Below the pieces are notes generated by a model. It was not told where the DNA came from. It searched no databases and saw nothing but the letters and a program-made list of their open reading frames with translations. Shown piece by piece: positions 2,834-48,271 of a stretch of 64,000 nt of DNA. The stretch lies in contig JBEWZL010000236.1 in assembly GCA_045837725.1 (NCBI GenBank), forward strand, positions 186,001 through 250,000. The letters are read 5' to 3'. Positions within the stretch are counted from its first letter, which is position 1. Each line of letters opens with the position of its first letter. The position numbers and the translations under genes were made by a program. This stretch comes from Vermamoeba vermiformis (Eukaryota).

Positions 2834-3074
2834 GGCTCGTAAAAAACAGATCTTGCAGTTGGCGTACGTCTGTCATTTTAAAGCGTGGCGATCATCAACA
2901 AATAATGTCTAACTATGTACATACACAAGAAGTAGTGATAACACTAAAATTTATTTTTGGTTCTAATGAATTGACAACACGTGTCCTAACAAACTAGGTG
3001 CAAGTTATTTTGTTGTTTAAGAAGAGTTAATGAGAGACAAGGTGTTTAGTCGCTCATGTGGACTGTTGGGGCGT

Positions 3075-4492
3075 TTAGAACGACAAGTCGTAGTCATCGC
3101 CGTCATCTTCTTCGACGTCAACGTTAGTATCTTGTTCGTCCATCGCAGTCAAGTCGAGCTTGTAGCGCAACAGACCGCCAAGGCCGCCAAGACCCTTCGT
3201 GAACTGGTCTCCGAGGGGCGAGTTGTCGCTGACGAGCTCAATCTTCGCACCGAAGTTGTGATAAGAGTCCATGAGCCAGTCCAACAAAGCACCTTCTTCT
3301 TCGACTTCCCAGTCAGCGTTGTCAGTGTTCTCAGTGTTGTTGTTGTTGTTCGTCGTGTCGGGATTGACGCACACGACACGAGTTTCACCGTTGGATTTGT
3401 TCTTGAGCTTGCGGCGGATGGTCGGCAAGTTGTCCCACACGATCAAGGTCTCAACAATACCGCTCTCAAGGGCCATCAAAGTGTCACGAGCACCAATGCA
3501 GTAGGGACCATCAGTGGCAATGGTCTCCATGAACTTGGAAAGCAGTTCTTTCTCGCGCACGAGCTTGACGCCCTTGAGCACGTCACTCGCGAGTTGGATC
3601 GTCTCGTTGAGTCCTGTCTCGCCATTGTATTGAATGTCGAGCACTTTGATCACCTTAGACTGAATGCGCTTGTCGAGGTACTGGGACTTGACGAACTCGC
3701 GCTTGAGGTCTCCAAAGCCTGCGACGATGAGGCCCTCGACGTTGGTCTTGTTGGTAGCAGGGTCGATGAAGTGCTTCACCGCTGCTTCGATCACGTCCTT
3801 CACGTACCAATCGCGCTTTTCTTCGCGAATTCGACGGAAGCGGTCGTGAGATTGACCTCCACGGCCGTGCTTCTTAGGCAGACTGACGTCCCACTTGACG
3901 AGAGTTTCGCGCGTGTCGCCGCAAATGACGTGCATGCTACACCCAGAACCATCCATTAGAATGATGCCAAAGCGTGCGTTGTCCTCCAACTGAGACTTAA
4001 GCGTCTCCGTGTGGAATTTGCTACCACAAAAGTAGAGATTGTGGGTTGTAGGCTTCAGAGGCTCCAAGGCAACGTTGATCCACTTGGATTTGCCAGCTTC
4101 GGTCGTATAATTGCCACAAAAGATGGCAAGTCCATTCGGAGGTGGCGCCTTATAGTATTTCAACTAAAATAAAATAATCAGTCACTGCGTAATTATTATT
4201 CGAATTACTAATTATTTAATAAAATCAAATTAAATTATCCGAGATGCTTACCTTTGCCAGGATGGACCGAATTGCATCCTGGACTGACTGCCTGTTAAAG
4301 ACGCGACTTGATGTTGTCAGCGGCGCCGTATTCGGAATTCAACTTGGTGGCCACCTTGCTGATCGAGCCACCGGCAGGGATGATAATCGAAAGCATGCTT
4401 GTGCCGCTTCCTTCCACGTTCTCAATGTCGTTGAGTAATCGTTTCAGGCGGAGTTTTTCTACTTCAGCGTTGCGAATAACAGATGAGGTCAT
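3075..4492 (-). CDS. ETF1: Eukaryotic release factor 1 (divergent eRF1). ORF1 4492-4298, +1 frameshift at CTT-TAA (4300-4295), shifted frame 4296-4252, intron 4251-4164, exon 2 4163-3075; 442 aa if shifted
   Basis: GTS (GSGTSMLSIIIP), NIKS (GAADNIKSRL), PPNGLAIFCG, YFCGSKF (YxCxxxF), KKHGRGGQS and QFTKGLGGLGGLLRYK. The frame is restored by skipping one nucleotide. Confidence 0.93.
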
Positions 4493-4680
4493 TTTCAGGT
4501 TTAGTTGTTGCGTTTGGTAGCTTTTGTAAAGCTTGAGGTTTGGTTGTTGCTTTGTATGAGCAGTTGGAAAAGGAAAAATGAAGAAGAAACTGTTTTTGTC
4601 CCTGCCTTTCTGCCCTATTTCTCAAAAGCAAAAACCAGCGTTCACTGAATTCCAACTATTTTCACGTGCGAGATATTTAC

Positions 4681-5484: not shown

Positions 5485-6240
5485 TTAGCCGATCGAGATG
5501 AATGACTTGAATTGACCACGCTGGTCGGCGACGGTTCCGTTGAAAGCAGTACCATAGAATGCGGCTAATGCGGCAAGTTGTGCTAGAGTTAAAGCGTCTG
5601 CCGCTACCAACGTTGGCGGGAAAAAAACCACCGGATTTGCAGCTTGTGGCAATAAACCCACTAGTTCGAGTATATTAGGTTCTACCATTAATCAAGCAAT
5701 AATGAAGTTAAACTCACTGTTGGGTCCAGCTACAGTCGAGGGCAAAGGGTACAGGACGCCTCGAGAAACGCTGATTGCATGTGCATTCCTTGCCCGTAAG
5801 GAAGGCAACTGAAGGCTGACCTGTAGGAGGGTTTGCATAGCCTGCTGGTTGTTTTGCACAACCTGCAGGGCGTTTTGCACAGCCTGCTGGTTGTTTTGCA
5901 CAACCTGCAGGGTATTTTGTATGGCGTTTATCTGCGCTAAAAGTTGCTGGCCCCAGAGGGGAGCTCCGGCTCCTGGATACGTCTGCTCGGCAGCTAAAAT
6001 TGTTAGTTGATGGAAGCGGATGTTATAACAGAAGATATTATATTACCTGCATTCTGTACAGCTGTTTTTCTTTTACTGACGGAGACGTACTCCGCATCAG
6101 TGACCAAATTCCCGTTAGCCGCTGACAAAAATTAACTTAATATTATCTCAATTGCTAAAATTAATCTGTTCTCGTATTAATTATTGTTAGTAATGTACCC
6201 GTTTATTTCTATTTTTACCGCGCGTGCGCGGAATTTATTG
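5485..6240 (-). CDS. Mug135-like coiled-coil protein (start not resolved)
   Basis: APLWGQQLLAQINAIQN, a Q/N heptad repeat, RARNAHA...LYPLP and FFPPTL...LAALAAFYG resemble fungal-type Mug135-like proteins; introns present. Confidence 0.5.
5839..5912. repeat. 42-bp-period tandem duplication in coding sequence
   Basis: agcctgctggttgttttgcacaacctgcaggg occurs at 5839 and 5881 and encodes LQVVQNNQQA twice. Confidence 0.9.
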
Positions 6241-9400: not shown

Positions 9401-10080
9401 CATTGGTGGTATTCACATTGCCTTGCTCTCCATCATATTTTTGACCTCTAACTACATTGCGGTAAGTTCTAACCTCGTGTTTGCAACTGCGACTAACCTT
9501 CAATACTAGGATACTTTCGTTCGCGGAGGAAATCACGCGGAGGATGTGTTCTTGACAGCTTTCTTTTGCTTCTTCATCTACAGTGCCACTTTCAACGCTT
9601 TCAATGTCAGGTAAGCGACGGACTGCTCTCTTCCCTTTAACAATGGGGTTGTAAATTTTGGAATACGACGGATCAACAAGCGCTCGTGGCTCAAGTGGTA
9701 GAGTGTCTGGCTACGAACCAGGAGGCTGCGGGTTCAAGTCCCGTCGGGCGCAATTTCTTTTTTGCTTTTTACTATTTTGAACCCCCGATTAACAAACCCT
9801 TCTTAGAACGCCCAGTATGAACTTGCTCGAGAATGTGCTACAAAACAGGAACTTTGTTGCTGTGGTTGGATTTATTATGTTTGTTCAATGGATCATGACT
9901 TATGTCGGTGGATCCGTGCTTCGTACAGTCCCGTTGACAGCCCACGAGTGGTTCTTCACCCTATTTTTGTCCTCTACGGTCATACCAGTAGACTTGTTCC
10001 GCAAGTACTTCGTTTTGCCAAGGATCCTGCGGAGTTTCACTTTCACAAACAGAAGACATGAAGGATTTTCAATGGTTTAA
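6435..10080 (+). CDS. P-type (P2) Ca2+-transporting ATPase, multi-exon
   Basis: GDRIPADG, VAVPEGLP, DKTGT phosphorylation site, KGAPD, MVTGD, GMTGDGINDS and QLLWVNLVMDTLAALA. Confidence 0.95.
9680..9752 (+). tRNA. tRNA-Arg(ACG), in last intron (9611-9806) of the Ca-ATPase gene
   Basis: GCGCTCG/CGGGCGC acceptor stem, TGGCTCAAGTGG A-box, anticodon loop CT-ACG-AA, GGTTCAAGTCC B-box and a downstream T-run. Confidence 0.95.
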
Positions 10081-10135: not shown

Positions 10136-11388
10136 TTACAGTCTGATAATAACAGGTTTTAAGGCTTCTTGACGCTTTCGCAACAGCTGCCCTAATGTCC
10201 TTTCGATATCAGGCGGAATTTGATGAGGCTGCCCATCCATCTACAAAAAGAATAATCAGCGCAGTTCTTTGCCAAAGCAGTACATGGAAAGCGTAACGAG
10301 CAAAAAAGAAATGGTTCCGCCCGGACTCGAACCGGGGACCTACTGCGTGTGAGGCAGACGTGATAACCAACTACACCACGAAACCTTGTTATTTTCTCAC
10401 CCCAATTTTTTGGGGTCACACCAGTTCGGCTACGTACCTGTATATTCTGCAACAAAACCATTATTTCGCGGTCTAGCTTTGATACAATCCTATAAGGCCA
10501 CTTGCGCTGTTTCACGGCATCTTTCCACCTCTTCGATAATGTACTGGTTGGTATTCCAAGTCTGTTTGCTGCGTCTTTCTGTGGCATATTGAGGTAAGGA
10601 GTGACATCGAGATATTGCTCGTTCTTCGTGTTGTTATAAAATGAGTTCGGTATCTCAGCTGAAGCTCGTGGCAGGTCCGAAGCTCTGTACCAAGTAGTCC
10701 CTCCCGAGTTGTTATTATTGTTGTTACTCTTTGTATTTGTGTTGGACGTATTTGCGCTGCTAGATGATAGACTCACAGGCTCGCTCGATGTGTTGTTTAA
10801 AAATGACAAAACTGGTGAACTATCCGCGTTGAATGAATTTGACCTGATAATCTCTTTTAGCTGGTTGTGAATATCAGCCGATGAATTGTAGTTAGCCAAT
10901 TGATGCGGTGACTCGATGAGCTCTCCGTCGTCATTTGGAATAAACGAATTGGGTTCATCCTCGCCAACGGTGAATATATGTTCATCTGTCACTGGAACGT
11001 CGTGATAAGCCGATGTGATGTCATCAATATAGCTGAGACTATTTTCATCGTCCTCTAGTCCGCTCAGTGAAGCAAAATTGTCTGACGGTTCGATGGGATC
11101 TGCCACTGGGAGCAAATTATTGTTGTTCAAAGGTGTAATTAACGTGCTGCTGACGTTTGGTATATTGTCTGTATTATCCGCGGTAATATAAGAACTGTGT
11201 CCATTCACATAATTATTGACGCCATTCGAATTCAAAGAATTGGTATGTTGGTGCGTGACTCCTAGGGCTCCTTCAGCTTCTTCTACTACCTTTCTAAGCT
11301 CCTCTTGTTGCTTAAAAAAATTCAATATGCTTTGTGGTATAATTACTTTGGTAAATGGCACGCTGTTAGAGCTGGCCAATTGCTCCAT
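10136..11388 (-). CDS. RWP-RK domain transcription factor (coding intron 10241-10437, plus a 5'-UTR intron)
   Basis: YLNMPQKDAANRLGIPTSTLSKRWKDAVKQRKWPYRIV. Last exon MDGQPHQIPPDIERTLGQLLRKRQEALKPVIIRL*. N/S-rich low-complexity N-terminus. Confidence 0.88.
10312..10385 (-). tRNA. tRNA-Val(CAC), in last intron of the RWP-RK gene
   Basis: Reverse complement GGTTTCGTGGTGTAGTTGGTTATCACGTCTGCCTCACACGCAGTAGGTCCCCGGTTCGAGTCCGGGCGGAACCA, followed by a T-run. Confidence 0.95.
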
Positions 11389-11736
11389 CTGAAAAATTAA
11401 AAATTAATTTGACATGTTAGATAAATGCAATAAATGCGTTAATTGCTTAATATGTGCCTCTAAATTGCTAGAAAATACTTCTATTGATAAAAAGAATTGT
11501 CCGATTGAAGTTTGACAAGCTTTTCGGTAGCGAACTTTGCAAAAAGCTAAAGTAGTGCCGAAAATTACCACCTACCTTGCCTGCCAAATGCCAATATGCT
11601 GACTTCTCAACCACAATAAGTTTTCTCGTGGATCTGTGGTCTTGGAGATAAAACGAATAAATTTTGCAACCAAAGGCACTCTTTTGGTCGGGCGACCTGC
11701 GAATTTGAGAAAAAAGTTAGTTTTTTATTATAAACG

Positions 11737-15496: not shown

Positions 15497-16634
15497 ATGT
15501 AAGTATTCTCAAATTTGGCGCGAATGCCAGCGAAGCATCTGAATCAAATCCCAAAACAGAAAAATTAATTGCCATTAATTAAATAGGTCGGCTATCCAAG
15601 ATTTCCTCCTTGATACTGGTGTTAACCTTCCCCCAGCACAAGAGTGCTTTGGTTTTGAAGGCGTCGAAAAGAAGCTCGAAATCGACTTCAAGAAGATTAA
15701 AAACAACAAGCTTGGCTTGCGCGTCATTCCTCGCGCTTGCTGGGAAGAAGTACTCGATATTGTCAAATGCAAAATCCTCAACATGACCAAGAACGCGTAC
15801 TTCGATGCTTATGTCTTATCCGAATCTAGCTTGTTTGTCTATCCATACAAAGTCATGCTCAAGACTTGCGGCACAACTGTTACCCTTCGCTGCCTTGACA
15901 GACTCATGGAAATTGTGAAGGAGCACGTTCCCGAGACCTCTATCGAATTCTGCTTCTTCAGTCGACGCAATCTTCTCTTCCCCGATCGACAGATCTTCCC
16001 TCACACTAGCTTCGAAGACGAAGTTGGCTACTTGAACAAAGCTTTTGGTACTGATGGAGAGGCCTACGTCTTTGGCCCCAACAACGCTCATCAATGGCAC
16101 TTGTACTTTGTCGACTACAGCGACAAGACCGAGATCACAGACGACGTGACTTTGGAGATTATGATGACTGACCTTGACCGCACTGTCATGGAACAGTTCT
16201 ACAAATCTGCCGAAGATATTTCTGCTAAAGAAATCACTCGTTCTGCCGGTATCTCGAATCTGATCCCTGGTCAAGTCACTGACGAGTACATGTTCGACCC
16301 CTGTGGCTATTCGATGAACGGTTTGTTTGGTGATGTCTACTCCACCATTCACATCACTCCTGAGGCTCACTGCTCATTCGTCTCGTTCGAAACCAACATC
16401 AAGGCTGCTGATTACACCAAGGTCCTCAACGATGTAATTGCTGCCTTCAAGCCTGGAAGATTCACCGTATCTCTCTTTGCCGACAGCGGCGCTCTCTGTG
16501 GTCCTTCAACCTTCAATGCTTTCAACCGCGAAGTTGGCGGTTTTACTTGCAAATCCAATGCCTACCACGAGTTCGAAGGACAATACAACGTTACGGTTAG
16601 CAACTATGTTGCCCGTGACTTTATTGGCGCTTAA
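15497..16634 (+). CDS. AMD1: S-adenosylmethionine decarboxylase proenzyme; start codon split AT|G by intron 15499-15586
   Basis: FEGVEKKLEIDF, the YVLSESSLFV autocleavage site, LKTCGTT, FDPCGYSMNG and TIHITPE. The only in-frame start is made by splicing. Confidence 0.95.
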
Positions 16635-31454: not shown

Positions 31455-34124
31455 ATGCAATGCAAATAAGAAATTGCGTGCCGTTGTTGATTGCTCTGTT
31501 AGCGATCGGCATTTGCTTCCAACAGCAAGGTAAGTTGAACTTTTACAATTTAATTATTTAATTAAAAACCGTGATCCTCAATACGAGCGAGTTGCGAATA
31601 CAGATCTGAATAATTACGGAAATTATTAATTATTTATTTAAAATTAACGCACGCTGCTTTTAGGTTTTGTAAATGGACAAAAACTTGATGAATGGGCTAT
31701 AGAATTTGATAATGAAGTTGATTCTATTGCTTTTGCCGAACGCTACGGGCTGATCCATGAAGGCCAGATCGGACCCCTAAAAAACACTTATTTATTTTCG
31801 AAACCAACGTCCACGAAAAGATCTGAAGACTCAGGCTTTGAGTCGAGGCATCGGAGATTTTTGGACATGTTGGAATTACCACAAACGTTGCAGCATCCGA
31901 AAAGATCCCTCACTTCGATAGAGAGTGCAACTGATGAAGAGATTCGCAGCGAAATTAAATGGTTCGAGCAACAAGAGTTAAAACAAAGGAGTAAGAGATC
32001 AATAAGAGAAGATCCAACATTCACGGTCCCGCCAACGGATCCGCTCTATCCCAAACAATGGCACTTGAGCGGCAACAAAACAAACAATCAAGTCGACATT
32101 AATGTACTCGGTGCTTGGAAGTTGGGTACGACAATAGCACAATAATTATAACTGATAACGTATTGACTCATACGCGCAGGTTACACGGGCAAAGGAGTCA
32201 CGATTGCCATTGTGGATGACGGCATTGACCAAGATCACCCTGACATTAAGCCTAATTTCAAACAAGAGGGCTCGTACAACTTCAATACAAACTCTAACAA
32301 CACCAGGCCCGTCAACTTGGGTGCACACGGAGTAAGTTTTGTCAAAACTGAAAATTATGCTAGATATAGCTAATACTAACTGTTACTTCTCAGGACTGGC
32401 ACGGCACAACAAGTGCAGGTGTTGCAGCAGCGCGTGATGACGGACAAGTGTGCGGAGTTGGAGTGGCTCCAAGAGCCAGTTTATCAGCCGTTGTGATCTT
32501 GCAAAGTGGTTCGGTGTCCGACGCCGTGGAAGCACGTGCAATTACACACGCACTGGAAGTGAATGATATTTATAGCAACAGTTGGGGACCAGTCGATGAT
32601 GGCAGACGAAAAGAGGCCCCTGGTCCCCTCACTCAAAAAGCATTCGAGCACGCACTCAAAAAGGGAAGAAACGGCCTCGGGTATGTTGTACTCACATCTG
32701 CGTGGCACCTCAATAATAATATAATGTAGCACGATCTATGTCTGGGCAGCAGGCAATGGCCGCAGGAATTCAGATGAGTGCAATTACGATGGCTACGCAA
32801 ACTGGCGTGGCACGGTGTTGATCGGCGCTGTATCGTGGAAAGGATCGTCAGTGTGGTACTCAGAGTCCTGTGCTGCACTTTTAGGTGTCACACCGAGCTC
32901 GGGTGATGCAGCTAGGAAAGATCCGGACATTGTAACAACTGATCTGAGAAACGGAGGACTTGAAAATGTAAGCACGACCAATACATGCACCAAGACAAGA
33001 TACTAACCAAAACAGGGCCTATGCACGAGCAAATTCACTGGCACATCCGCTTCGTGCCCAATGGCCGCAGGTATCGTTGCACTGATGTTAGAGGCCAATC
33101 CAAAGCTCTCGTGGCTAGACGTGCAGTACATTCTGGTTGAAAGCTGTGTCCGCACCGAGTTGGATGATCCAGATTGGAAACAAAACGGTGCTGGCCGCTG
33201 GGTGAACCACAAGTTTGGGTTTGGACTGATTGACACTACGCGCGCAGTAGAATTGAGTGTGAAGCACAAAGATAATATCAAAGAAGAAAGTAGATCCTTC
33301 CAATCACTAGAAATGAAGACTTGGGACGCGTAAGTTTAAAAACCACCTAAACCTTTCGTGCTCACCATTCGCAGCCAAACACCAGAAGTCAGTGCAACAA
33401 TTATGGTGCCCAATGATTCGTTAGAGTTGCATCACGTTGAAATTCGGGTCAACATCACGCATCGCATGCGAGGAAAACTGAGTATCGTGCTAACAGCTCC
33501 TTCGGGTTTGAGTAAGTAGAAAAACAAGGGTTACAAGGGCGAGGCGTTTGGCCCCCTTTCGCCACAAAATCCTAAACTCGCGAAAACCGCGAACAAGTTG
33601 CCCTTATAGCTCAGTTGGCAGAGCGCTAGTCTCGTAAACTAGAGGTCTTGGGTTCGATTCCCAGTGAGGGCAGTTTTTTTTTTTGCTTTTGGGTTACTTA
33701 CTTTTTATTTCAGCAAGCATCTTAGCTAATCAACACAGCGATGGAGGTGCTGACTACAATGCTTGGCGATTCACCTCATTGCGCCATTGGGGAGAAGACA
33801 TCACGGTTAGTTTTTTTTTTTAGTTAATTCCTGTGATGTGATCTGACTCATGTACCACAGGGAAATTGGACCATATACATACGAGATTCAGGACAACTCA
33901 GTGGCGAGTTCAAAGACTGGAGCCTGAATTTTTACGGCATTCCTCGCACGCCCAGCGCTCCTCAAGTCGATCCCACTACTGTCATCAATGACGACAGCGG
34001 CATTTACAGCTATCTCACTACGATGTCAATATTCCTCGTGTGCGTAATGGCTGGCTTAATGTACGTCTATTATCGAAAGCGAAAGGCTCGCTACGATCCA
34101 TCTGGCGTTGTAAATATTTTGTAA
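31455..34124 (+). CDS. Kexin/furin-like proprotein convertase (S8 domain, P domain, TM)
   Basis: Signal peptide, RSKR propeptide site, IAIVDDG, HGTTSAG, YVWAAGNG, FTGTSASCP, HKFGFG, RHWGE and a C-terminal TM helix. Confidence 0.93.
33600..33672 (+). tRNA. tRNA-Thr(CGT), in penultimate intron (33512-33713) of the kexin gene
   Basis: GCCCTTA/TGAGGGC acceptor stem, anticodon arm CTAGT-CT-CGT-AA-ACTAG, GGTTCGATTCC and a long T-run terminator. Confidence 0.95.
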
Positions 34125-46045: not shown

Positions 46046-48271
46046 ATGTTTGACGTTATTATCGTGGGCGCTGGTGTATCTGGTAAGTCTGTGCATTCTT
46101 GAAATACGTATTGAAATACTGAAACAACGCGATCCTCTTTATTCGATCGGATCTTGAGTACGAATATTAGAGCTAATAATTGCCAATTAAATAGGCCTGT
46201 ACACTGCCAAATTATTGCAAGACGAATATAAGTTAAAAGTATTAGTCGTTGAAGCGTCAGATCGTGTTGGAGGTAGAGTTAGACAGGTAAGCTTATTTAG
46301 CGGATTTCTTTCGTCAAAATTATATAAAAATATTTAATACACGGAAATGACCCGTAGAATACCCATTGCATCGTTCACATTTTATTTCACGAATCCAATC
46401 TAAAATCATGAAAATCAGAATTTGATCAACAATTAGCGCAATTATTGCTTAACTACCTCTTAATAAATAGGAAACTGGATTCGTTAGTTGGCCTATTGAT
46501 GTTGGTGCTGAAATTGTTCACGGCAAAGACGTCTTGCTCTATAAAATTGCCAAACAAAACGGCTGGGAAATGAAACGCGTGCGTAAAAATTACAAAGCTA
46601 GTATTTATGTGCTAATTGAGATTTAGATTTTCGATTCTTTGCCTCGCTTGGACGGCACGCCTTTCACAGGTCGCGAGTGGTGGTACCTCGGACGTGAACG
46701 CAAGTTCTTGCCTTATCCGACCACTGAGCCTGATGTGCGCAAAGCTTTTGAACTCATTCGACGCGGATCTGACGGTGGTGTGAAAGCTAACGACGGGTCA
46801 TTGATGAAGGTGAGCACGTGACTTTGATGATCTTAGGTTCAGTTAACTAATTATGGTAATAGTTCATGGTCGACAACGGAGTTTCATGGCGAGCTCTCCC
46901 ACTTGTGGACGCACTTTACGGCAAAATTTGGGCCACGGACATCGACAAGTTGGGTGCTAAAGTACGTGCACATAACGCGTTGAAATATTTTATTAACGGG
47001 ACTGAATAGGAAACATTGACTGAAGAACACAAAGAGAACTCTGACGTTGAAGACAATTACAAGGTTATTAAGTCATTTTCCGTTTTGTTGGATTTCTTGA
47101 AGAAGGATCTGGAGATCAAGACAAACTGGAGGGTACGTTGTACTGACTCAAACATGGAACGCAATCTAATTCACACTTTATATAGGCTACATCAGTCACA
47201 TATCAAGGAGACGTCATTAAAATTAAGAATGATCGTGGCGAGGAGTTATTGAGCAGACGCGCAGTCATTAGTGTGCCGGTCAATATTTTGCGCGATGGAG
47301 ATATTAAATTCACTCCCGAGCTTCCTAAAGAGAAGGTGCTTGCCTCACAGAAGGTTGGCATGGGCATGGCTCTGAAAGTCATTTTGAAGTTCTCTCAATT
47401 GCCATTCTGGCCCAAAGATATGCAACTGTGCATTTGTTCTGAATCGATCTTCCCACAAATTTGGCTCGAGGTAAGCTACCTAAGCATGAAAGCTAGTTTA
47501 GACTTGAGTATTAAATTGTACTCGTAGGGAGGACCAAGCCGTGGCTTAAATGCTCCTTACATTGTCGTTGCCTTTGTGTCTGGCGATGCTGCAAAGAATA
47601 TTCAAAGTATGCCCGATAAGTTGGTAGTGGACAGTTTCTTGAAGCAATTAGACACCATGTTCGGCAACGAGCAAGACAGCAACCCTGCTACACGCCACTA
47701 CTTGGACTACTTCATCTTTGATTGGGCCAAGATGCCGTTTGTGCGTGCTGGATACAGCTATCCTGCCACTGGAAGCCTCGGCCAACGCGCTGTCCTAGCA
47801 AAGGCAAGTAACTGGACTCGATTTTTTTCTGGGCAATCTGTTGCGTTTTGAAGCAGCCATCACAATTTTGATTGTCGCGGGGATCCCACAAACATTGAAC
47901 AGGCCTCCGAGCCCAAGGGGTCGTGTTTTCCTAGAATTCGAAAATCAAGCAAGGTTCCGTAGCTCAGCGGCAGAGCGGATGACTGCAGATCATCAGGTCA
48001 CCGGTTCAAATCCGGTCGGAACCTTTTCTTTTTACTTTTTTGTTGTTACCACTCTTGTTTGGGGCCCCAAACAGCTATCCCAAGCAGCTTTTTATTCAAC
48101 GATGATCGCTAATATCTTTTTTAGTCTGTACAAAATAAGTTGTTCTTCTGCGGTGAAGGAACTGGAGATGAGGAATCTGGAACCGTGAATGCTGCTCTCG
48201 AGACGAGTGTTCGTGCTGCTAACGAAGTTGCCGTATCATTGTCAAAACCCAAGCTCAAGAGCAAGTTGTAA
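46046..48271 (+). CDS. Flavin-dependent amine oxidase (polyamine oxidase-like) with C-terminal SKL peroxisomal signal
   Basis: DVIIVGAGVSG, EASDRVGGR, DVGAEIVHG, RAGYSY, LFFCGEG and a ...KSKL* ending. Confidence 0.88.
47953..48024 (+). tRNA. tRNA-Cys(GCA), in last (GC-AG) intron 47804-48124 of the amine oxidase gene
   Basis: GGTTCCG/CGGAACC acceptor stem, anticodon arm GATGA-CT-GCA-GA-TCATC, GGTTCAAATCC and a T-run. Confidence 0.95.

Follow-up and report, generated by a model that had tools for sequence, protein, structure and literature searches.

The window analyzed here (64,000 nucleotides of Vermamoeba vermiformis DNA) carries on its minus strand a paralog of the eukaryotic class-I release factor eRF1 whose reading frame is broken by an early stop codon. 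This raises the question of whether an eRF1 protein can be made from the gene and, if so, which features would carry the ribosome past the stop. The gene starts with an ATG at 4492, and its coding sequence ends at 3075. ORF1 (4295–4492) encodes 65 amino acids, contains the GTS and NIKS motifs, and closes with NIKSR-L-stop, as the ORF1s of its relatives do. The last sense codon, CTT (4300–4298), the TAA (4297–4295), and the C that follows constitute the putative +1 shift site CUU-UAA-C (4294–4300). In the +1 frame, exon 1 continues as NRQSVQDAIRSILAK (4252–4296); read with an X at the shift, this continuation was co-linear with solved eRF1 N-domains (E 5e-14). The sole intron (4164–4251; 88 nt, GT-AG) follows, and exon 2 (3075–4163) encodes the rest of eRF1 (362 amino acids plus stop) including the YxCxxxF motif (YFCGSKF), the GGQ motif, and the M and C domains. 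The spliced coding sequence is 1330 nt long.

In-frame readthrough of the TAA would reach another stop after 18 codons, and the remaining frame is closed within 20 codons, so that only the +1 path yields eRF1. Along this path, the N, M, and C domains (PF03463, PF03464, and PF03465) were all present, and the TASNIKS motif reads AADNIKS. The N-domain was complete only by the +1 path, as seen on the metagenomic relative L013 and on exon 1 of the window gene; in L013, PF03463 crosses the shift (residues 16–134, E 6e-13, read with an X at the shift). The full-length product would be an eRF1 of 442 amino acids, for which release activity is predicted.

Could the locus be a pseudogene, or the extra base an assembly error or a base corrected at the RNA level? 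The gene is a divergent duplicate, with 40–58% identity per exon to the canonical copy, as a decaying gene might be. The transcripts argued otherwise. The splice 4163–4252 was present in contigs from all four runs, which came from four studies (two runs recorded as RNA, one guessed to be RNA, and one unlabelled). A 1488-nt contig from an RNA library spans 4549–2975 and is gapless in exon 1, and record 1 of X15 had no gaps over 4252–4549. Among 12 of the 13 indels listed for the run contigs, none was near the stop, those 12 all falling at 2998–3331. A second joint listed within the coding sequence was seen in one contig only, with a short side of 30 letters. Because the spliced contigs are gapless across exon 1, the spliced RNA carries the stop, which speaks against an assembly error as well as against its removal by splicing. 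Selection pointed the same way: between the window and its ortholog L020, dN/dS was 0.10 for ORF1 (dS 0.71) and 0.08 for ORF2 (dS 0.78), and within the relatives L013–L015 it was 0.11–0.30. Purifying selection thus acts on both sides of the shift, as judged from the compared sequences. As the site also recurs in independent contigs and species, a pseudogene, an error, or a corrected transcript is almost certainly the wrong explanation.

The shift site was then followed in other sequences. A motif scan of metagenome contigs, with a pattern that itself required the shift site, gave nine matches, five of which were eRF1 (L013–L016 and L020). The other four (L012 and L017–L019) were not eRF1; they were regarded as chance matches and left out of all counts. 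In the window and in all five eRF1 loci, which range from 89% to 45% identity, CUU-UAA-C stands directly after NIKS-R. L020 is the syntenic ortholog (89% at the amino acid level), and L013–L016 are 45–46% identical to the window; the six DNA sequences represent three lineages, L013–L015 being one. In L013–L016 KIKS or QIKS replaces NIKS, and in L013–L015 GSS or GNS replaces GTS, so the stop-codon preference of these proteins may differ.

Evidence independent of the pattern came from predicted proteins. The short proteins matched by an ORF1 query ended in NIKSRL in five of five cases, as did four more cluster members, and none of the six closest ORF2 clusters (57–92% identity) was called full length. 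Cluster P0003 starts with the +1 reading through the shift site. A frameshift would explain why such eRF1 proteins are truncated or split by gene callers. A profile search of 1.84 billion representatives retrieved more proteins of the shifted type. An F preceding the N of NRQSV was found in 30 of the 417 eRF1 proteins fetched, mostly as SSR(V/A/G)F, as K-S-R-xTT-T would be read in the +1 frame; it was missing from all 299 proteins whose upstream part is in frame and of NIKS type, and 88 of the 417 begin after the site. The 30 proteins correspond to about 18 genes, 12 carrying SS(R/L)(V/A/G)F or a close variant of it, and six starting with VF or MF. In the latter, the start call at xTG-TTT would imply a GUU-UAA site. 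These VF or MF starters before NRQSV or NRLSV (P0160, P0178, P0238, P0247, P0322, and P0336) recall the GUU/AUU variants of Klosneuvirinae. The only named member is one signature gene in the transcriptome of Paradermamoeba levis (Amoebozoa) from EukProt; all others are environmental. The protein-only +1 signatures agree with all six DNA sequences, yet do not by themselves prove a stop. A search for homologs that used A4 as query brought up canonical eRF1s for the most part and no further family member, and an Atlas search gave generic eRF1 clusters only.

The V. vermiformis genome holds two eRF1 genes, this divergent paralog and a canonical, unshifted copy (G000:C163, L007, ~4177–1718, minus strand) that encodes 444 amino acids and has six introns. 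The motif of the canonical protein is TASNIKN, not NIKS. A quick 92-row tree had a branch (SH-aLRT 98) that set apart 17 rows with the signature, together with 12 N-truncated ones and not one full-length row; five signature rows were placed elsewhere. In a 45-row bootstrap tree, 18 of 23 shifted genes grouped at 83/95, an unstarred branch, the other five falling in two other places. Both trees were computed under LG+G4 and midpoint-rooted, and the profile had been built from the shifted genes themselves; on these sequences, one origin or several are possible.

Taken together, these data give good support to a programmed +1 frameshift in a family of nuclear eRF1 paralogs and make it very probable, the shifting itself being inferred from conservation. 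The explanation we favor, at a probability of roughly 0.75, is that the locus expresses a nuclear eRF1 paralog that reaches full length only through a +1 frameshift at CUU-UAA-C, and that this shift senses release factor. The peptidyl-tRNA-Leu on CUU would re-pair to UUU while UAA, placed in a context of weak termination, awaits eRF1. With ample release activity the ribosome would stop and release the 65-residue fragment; with scarce release activity it would shift by +1 and make the eRF1 of 442 residues. In this way the paralog would replenish termination capacity by feedback, much like RF2 in bacteria, and the quantity sensed would be the overall eRF1 activity, to which the canonical gene presumably contributes most. 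The core signal would be made up of the slippery codon together with the stop and its immediate 3' bases. An autoregulatory role of the frameshift is, by analogy, likely.

Several observations bear on this core signal. The hexamer after the stop, CAGGCA (4289–4294), fits the consensus CA(A/G)N(U/C/G)A, which is described for weak termination in yeast (PMC5829715); this yeast consensus fits five of the six DNA loci. The hexamer in the window uses AGG for Arg, and AGR codons occur in none of the 16 other Arg positions of ORF2 (1 of 17 in L020). So unusual an Arg codon points to selection for a weak stop. According to a review, CUU-U is the most efficient shift site in RF2 (PMC5009743). None of 30 tRNA loci, which sample the tRNA genes only in part, was a tRNA-Leu(AAG).

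The same site may also be viewed as tolerated constitutive slippage, which keeps a specialized paralog at a low level without any feedback. One T inserted between the Val/Leu codon (GTT/CTT) and the AAC of R-V-N makes TAA, so the site would be easily created, and it appears at three separate tree positions; canonical eRF1, moreover, covers the essential function. Slippage of this kind is nevertheless quite unlikely. A shift that depends on a stop is, in the gene of a release factor, a sensor of release activity by its very design, the site is kept across genes of only 35–47% identity, and the odd Arg codon suggests a stop selected to be weak.

We further determined what the sequence beyond the core signal contributes. 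The sequence-only reading had taken a hairpin after the stop for a required, antizyme-like 3' stimulator and had supposed that an intron less than 50 nt away allows escape from EJC-dependent NMD. The hairpin was found where it had been described: a spacer of 12 nt (4294–4283) separates the TAA from the 5' arm CCAGGATG (4282–4275), a 10-nt loop (4274–4265), and the 3' arm CATCCTGG (4264–4257), so that a perfect 8-bp stem (4257–4282, minus strand) lies wholly within exon 1. It is restricted to one lineage, and any function is putative. It is the only perfect Watson-Crick stem of at least 8 bp (loop 3–12) in the 1330-nt spliced coding sequence, and 11 such hairpins exist across the 64 kb; one beginning 5–20 nt downstream was met at 0.25% of random sites. 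Of 20,000 synonymous recodings, 177 (0.9%) placed a stem of at least 8 bp 5–20 nt past the stop, and 470 one of at least 7 bp. All of these chance tests are post hoc, the feature having been picked because it was conspicuous. The stem was predicted to pair, with probabilities of 0.75–1.0 in spliced and 0.36–0.98 in unspliced contexts. Its stability, in contrast, was unremarkable: shuffling gave z-scores of -1.2 to -1.75 for 45–49 nt (-1.49 for the 49-nt context and -1.75 for the 45 nt after the stop), and 14.6% of 2,000 synonymous recodings matched or beat the folding energy. The hairpin is thus locally unusual by placement and ordinary by folding energy.

Conservation did not single out the stem. 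L020 differs from the window by one change in the 43 bases after the stop, at a dS of about 0.75; seven of the eight pairs are kept, and the change breaks the G-C pair that closes the loop. Synonymous identity between the two genes was 13 of 14 codons after the stop against 227 of 357 elsewhere (p 0.018, nominal), and two further 15-codon blocks reached 11 of 12. Five of the six stem-arm codons and all eight spacer, loop, and flank codons were unchanged. Because the lone change falls within the stem and every non-stem codon is intact, the constraint appears to be region-wide rather than stem-specific. In L013–L016, that is in four of the six sequences, a continuous stem is absent although the shift site is shared. 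Over 8 pairs in six sequences no pair showed a two-sided, compensatory change (60% of the cells pair), RNAalifold on the six sequences did not recover the hairpin, and Rfam gave no match at E up to 1. A 4-bp helix that RNAalifold placed over the shift site (-2.9 kcal/mol) was weak and is not regarded as real. The stem is therefore conserved only among close relatives, and conservation of structure with compensation, as expected of an antizyme-like stimulator, was not found. The 13/14 synonymous identity and the 0.9% recoding figure leave room for a role that the stem may have in the lineage of the window; at most, the hairpin may assist shifting in this one lineage, with the odds against it.

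The intron was likewise where the sequence-only reading had put it, spliced contigs and coordinates both placing the junction of the only intron 43 nt downstream of the TAA. L020 has an intron of 74 nt at the same position and the same 43-nt spacing. The distance rule itself gave a weak argument. Downstream of the TAA the spliced mRNA runs on for at least 1232 nt, and long 3'UTRs are said to trigger NMD in all eukaryotes, intron-triggered NMD being described as efficient only in vertebrates, plants, and some fungi (PMC5397192). Because such a length is in itself a long-3'UTR signal for NMD, the junction distance alone would not protect the mRNA. Moreover, three relatives that form a sister group (58–61% identity) read LAK-LKNY at this place and have no intron; their ORF1s also end in NIKSRL, where the pairing of ORF1s with ORF2s is inferred from contigs of identical length. 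A single randomly placed intron would lie upstream of the stop or at most 55 nt after it in 19% of cases, and within 55 nt downstream in 4%. The canonical paralog lacks an intron at this position. In favor of NMD escape, five of its six introns lie over 200 nt beyond the corresponding codon, a region in which the shifted gene is free of introns, and UPF1, Mago, and UPF3 matches are present in the genome. A retrocopy origin would account for the loss of introns equally well. The literature searched, as far as its text was accessible, held no paper on the 50–55-nt rule in amoebae. The intron position is probably incidental or merely tolerated. Hence, the combination of a required stem and an intron placed for NMD escape is unlikely. 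The conclusion of the sequence-only reading, a programmed site rather than a random indel, withstood the analysis on other grounds, namely conservation of the site and purifying selection, rather than on the hairpin and the intron that it had named.

Constraint on the region rather than on the stem invoked the idea of a primary-sequence element 3' of the stop (GUCCA..GC.(C/A)UUC..UCC, C-rich in some lineages), with the hairpin as a by-product in one lineage. Such an element might slow termination in the mRNA channel or bind a protein that shields the mRNA from UPF1; it is compatible with a release-factor-sensing frameshift and would refine it. Invariant columns run 10–33 nt past the stop in three lineages. 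Val is encoded by GTC in six of six sequences, and GTC makes up 0–11% of Val codons elsewhere in L013–L016. Third-position C reaches 7–8 of 14 right after the stop in L013–L015, the highest block of each gene, and, according to a review, a PTB-binding sequence downstream of a stop linked to frameshifting competes with UPF1 (PMC5009743). However, there was no such enrichment in the window or L020 (3 and 2 of 14), that of L016 extends over the entire 5' part rather than being local, L013–L015 count as one lineage, and pairwise tests between distant lineages were non-significant. A sequence element of this kind is possible, with the odds against it. In L016, third-position C was seen to fall from ~45% to near 0 past codon ~60 of ORF2 and the frame breaks at 875; L016 is possibly a chimeric or error-bearing transcript contig.

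Frameshifted eRF1 genes are known from giant viruses, and the family might stem from an endogenized Mimiviridae-type eRF1 and have inherited its mechanism from them. Shifting there is described at CUU/GUU/AUU-UAG-C or CUU-UAA-C (PMC3521657; PMC6582330, Fig. S3), and the intron-free sister group lies on contigs of 29–193 kb. On the other hand, viral ORF1s end at codon 93–110 (43 in Bodo saltans virus) of 335–376 residues, here at codon 65 of 442; as the end codons differ, the position of the shift is probably not homologous to the viral one, the comparison being by codon number and not by alignment. Fifteen of 17 eRF1-like loci on viral contigs had an intact NIKSRVN, and the other two gave no N-domain; these 17 loci included no Mimiviridae-type genes. 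The motif had no match in viral contigs, searches of viral contigs with P0002, A1, and P0140 found no relative, and no viral row lay within the group of 18 shifted genes in the 45-row tree. A single pattern match from the viral-origin searches was put down to chance. The window gene, finally, has a spliceosomal intron and conserved host synteny. An origin of the family from giant viruses is thus improbable; some of the environmental relatives could be giant-virus genes.

Other features of the window also stood out. A short minus-strand ORF (5692–6042) with tandem repeats of the type QNNQQA(V/M)Q lies beside small ORFs (5485–5691) in the interval that separates the eRF1 paralog from a P-type ATPase gene, and the region looks like a repeated or mobile element. 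An intron-free plus-strand ORF of 351 codons (15579–16634) presumably encodes an S-adenosylmethionine decarboxylase, to judge by motif. Genes for this enzyme often carry regulatory upstream ORFs. tRNA genes were called at 9680–9752 (Arg), 10312–10385 (Val), 33599–33673 (Thr), and 47952–48025 (Cys); the Val call sits in an open frame of 403 codons (10192–11403) and may be false. Elsewhere in the assembly, tRNA genes are clustered in mirrored order on one contig (G000:C309; L055, L056), which suggests an organellar genome with an inverted duplication.

More broadly, the data lean slightly toward a widespread, overlooked protist family, in Amoebozoa at least, with an RF2-like gate after NIKS that arose several times and buffers termination with the aid of lineage-specific 3' helpers. 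The helpers would be the hairpin here and a C-rich tract elsewhere, and repeated origin would be explained by the insertion of one T.

Comparison with known systems placed the locus among release-factor circuits. In plants, which have further eRF1 copies, the paralog eRF1-1 monitors the efficiency of termination through a cis element, as is proposed here, but functional eRF1 arises there by normal termination, with readthrough and an intron in the 3'UTR triggering NMD (PMC5397192). Here the functional protein would need recoding, and the intron lies within the 50-nt zone. Neurospora has a circuit similar to the autoregulation of plant eRF1-1. Antizyme shares a stop-dependent +1 shift in a cellular eukaryotic mRNA. 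It differs by a site that is mostly UCC-UGA, by regulation through polyamines, and by a pseudoknot 3 nt after the site (PMC5009743); the paralog has a simple hairpin at 12 nt, which is not conserved. A search of the genome for antizyme itself gave no match, but neither did its control, so that it carries no weight.

Mimiviridae eRF1s (Mimivirus R726, Megavirus mg280, Tupanvirus, and Klosneuvirinae) are of the same protein type and are described to shift by +1 at CUU-UAG-C or CUU-UAA-C; Megavirus uses CUU UAA C, and for R726 shifting was demonstrated in Escherichia coli (PMC3521657). These genes differ in being viral, in shifting at codon 93–110 or 43, in several also needing UGA readthrough, and in encoding 335–376 residues (PMC6582330). 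The paralog stands apart from them by its host locus with intron and synteny and by its shift at codon 65. In PMC3521657, the Acanthamoeba paralog and other eukaryotic class-I release factors are said to have no internal stop.

Bacterial RF2 (prfB) likewise has an early stop in a class-I release factor, slips on CUU-U at CUU-UGA-C with a C after the stop, and pairs a short ORF1 with a long +1 ORF2 (PMC5009743; PMC3521657). The window gene has the features of this type: a conserved slippery codon, stop, and C early in the gene, the rest in the +1 frame, purifying selection on both ORFs, and the stop in the mRNA. It departs from RF2 by a non-homologous eRF1 fold, a UAA stop, a nuclear gene with an intron, and a second, unshifted copy. 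The bacterial RF2 frameshift furthermore has a Shine-Dalgarno-like stimulator, which has no counterpart in the eRF1 paralog.

Bacterial RF2 and Mimiviridae eRF1, not antizyme, are therefore the closer analogues. In the literature searched, which left aside most subscription papers and bioRxiv supplements, frameshifting was not described for any cellular eRF1 gene, and the word "frameshift" does not appear in the available text of a release-factor survey (PMC6514570); within this literature, autoregulation of release factors by frameshifting is in print for bacteria and Mimiviridae only. The hairpin alone is of little importance unless a reporter reveals an effect. The shift site, on the other hand, would lend itself as a natural reporter by which eRF1 activity can be followed on eukaryotic ribosomes. 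If our reading is true, the gene would join the few cellular eukaryotic genes with a regulatory frameshift and, as a conserved nuclear case beside those of bacteria and Mimiviridae, would add a further independent origin of the release-factor frameshift circuit.
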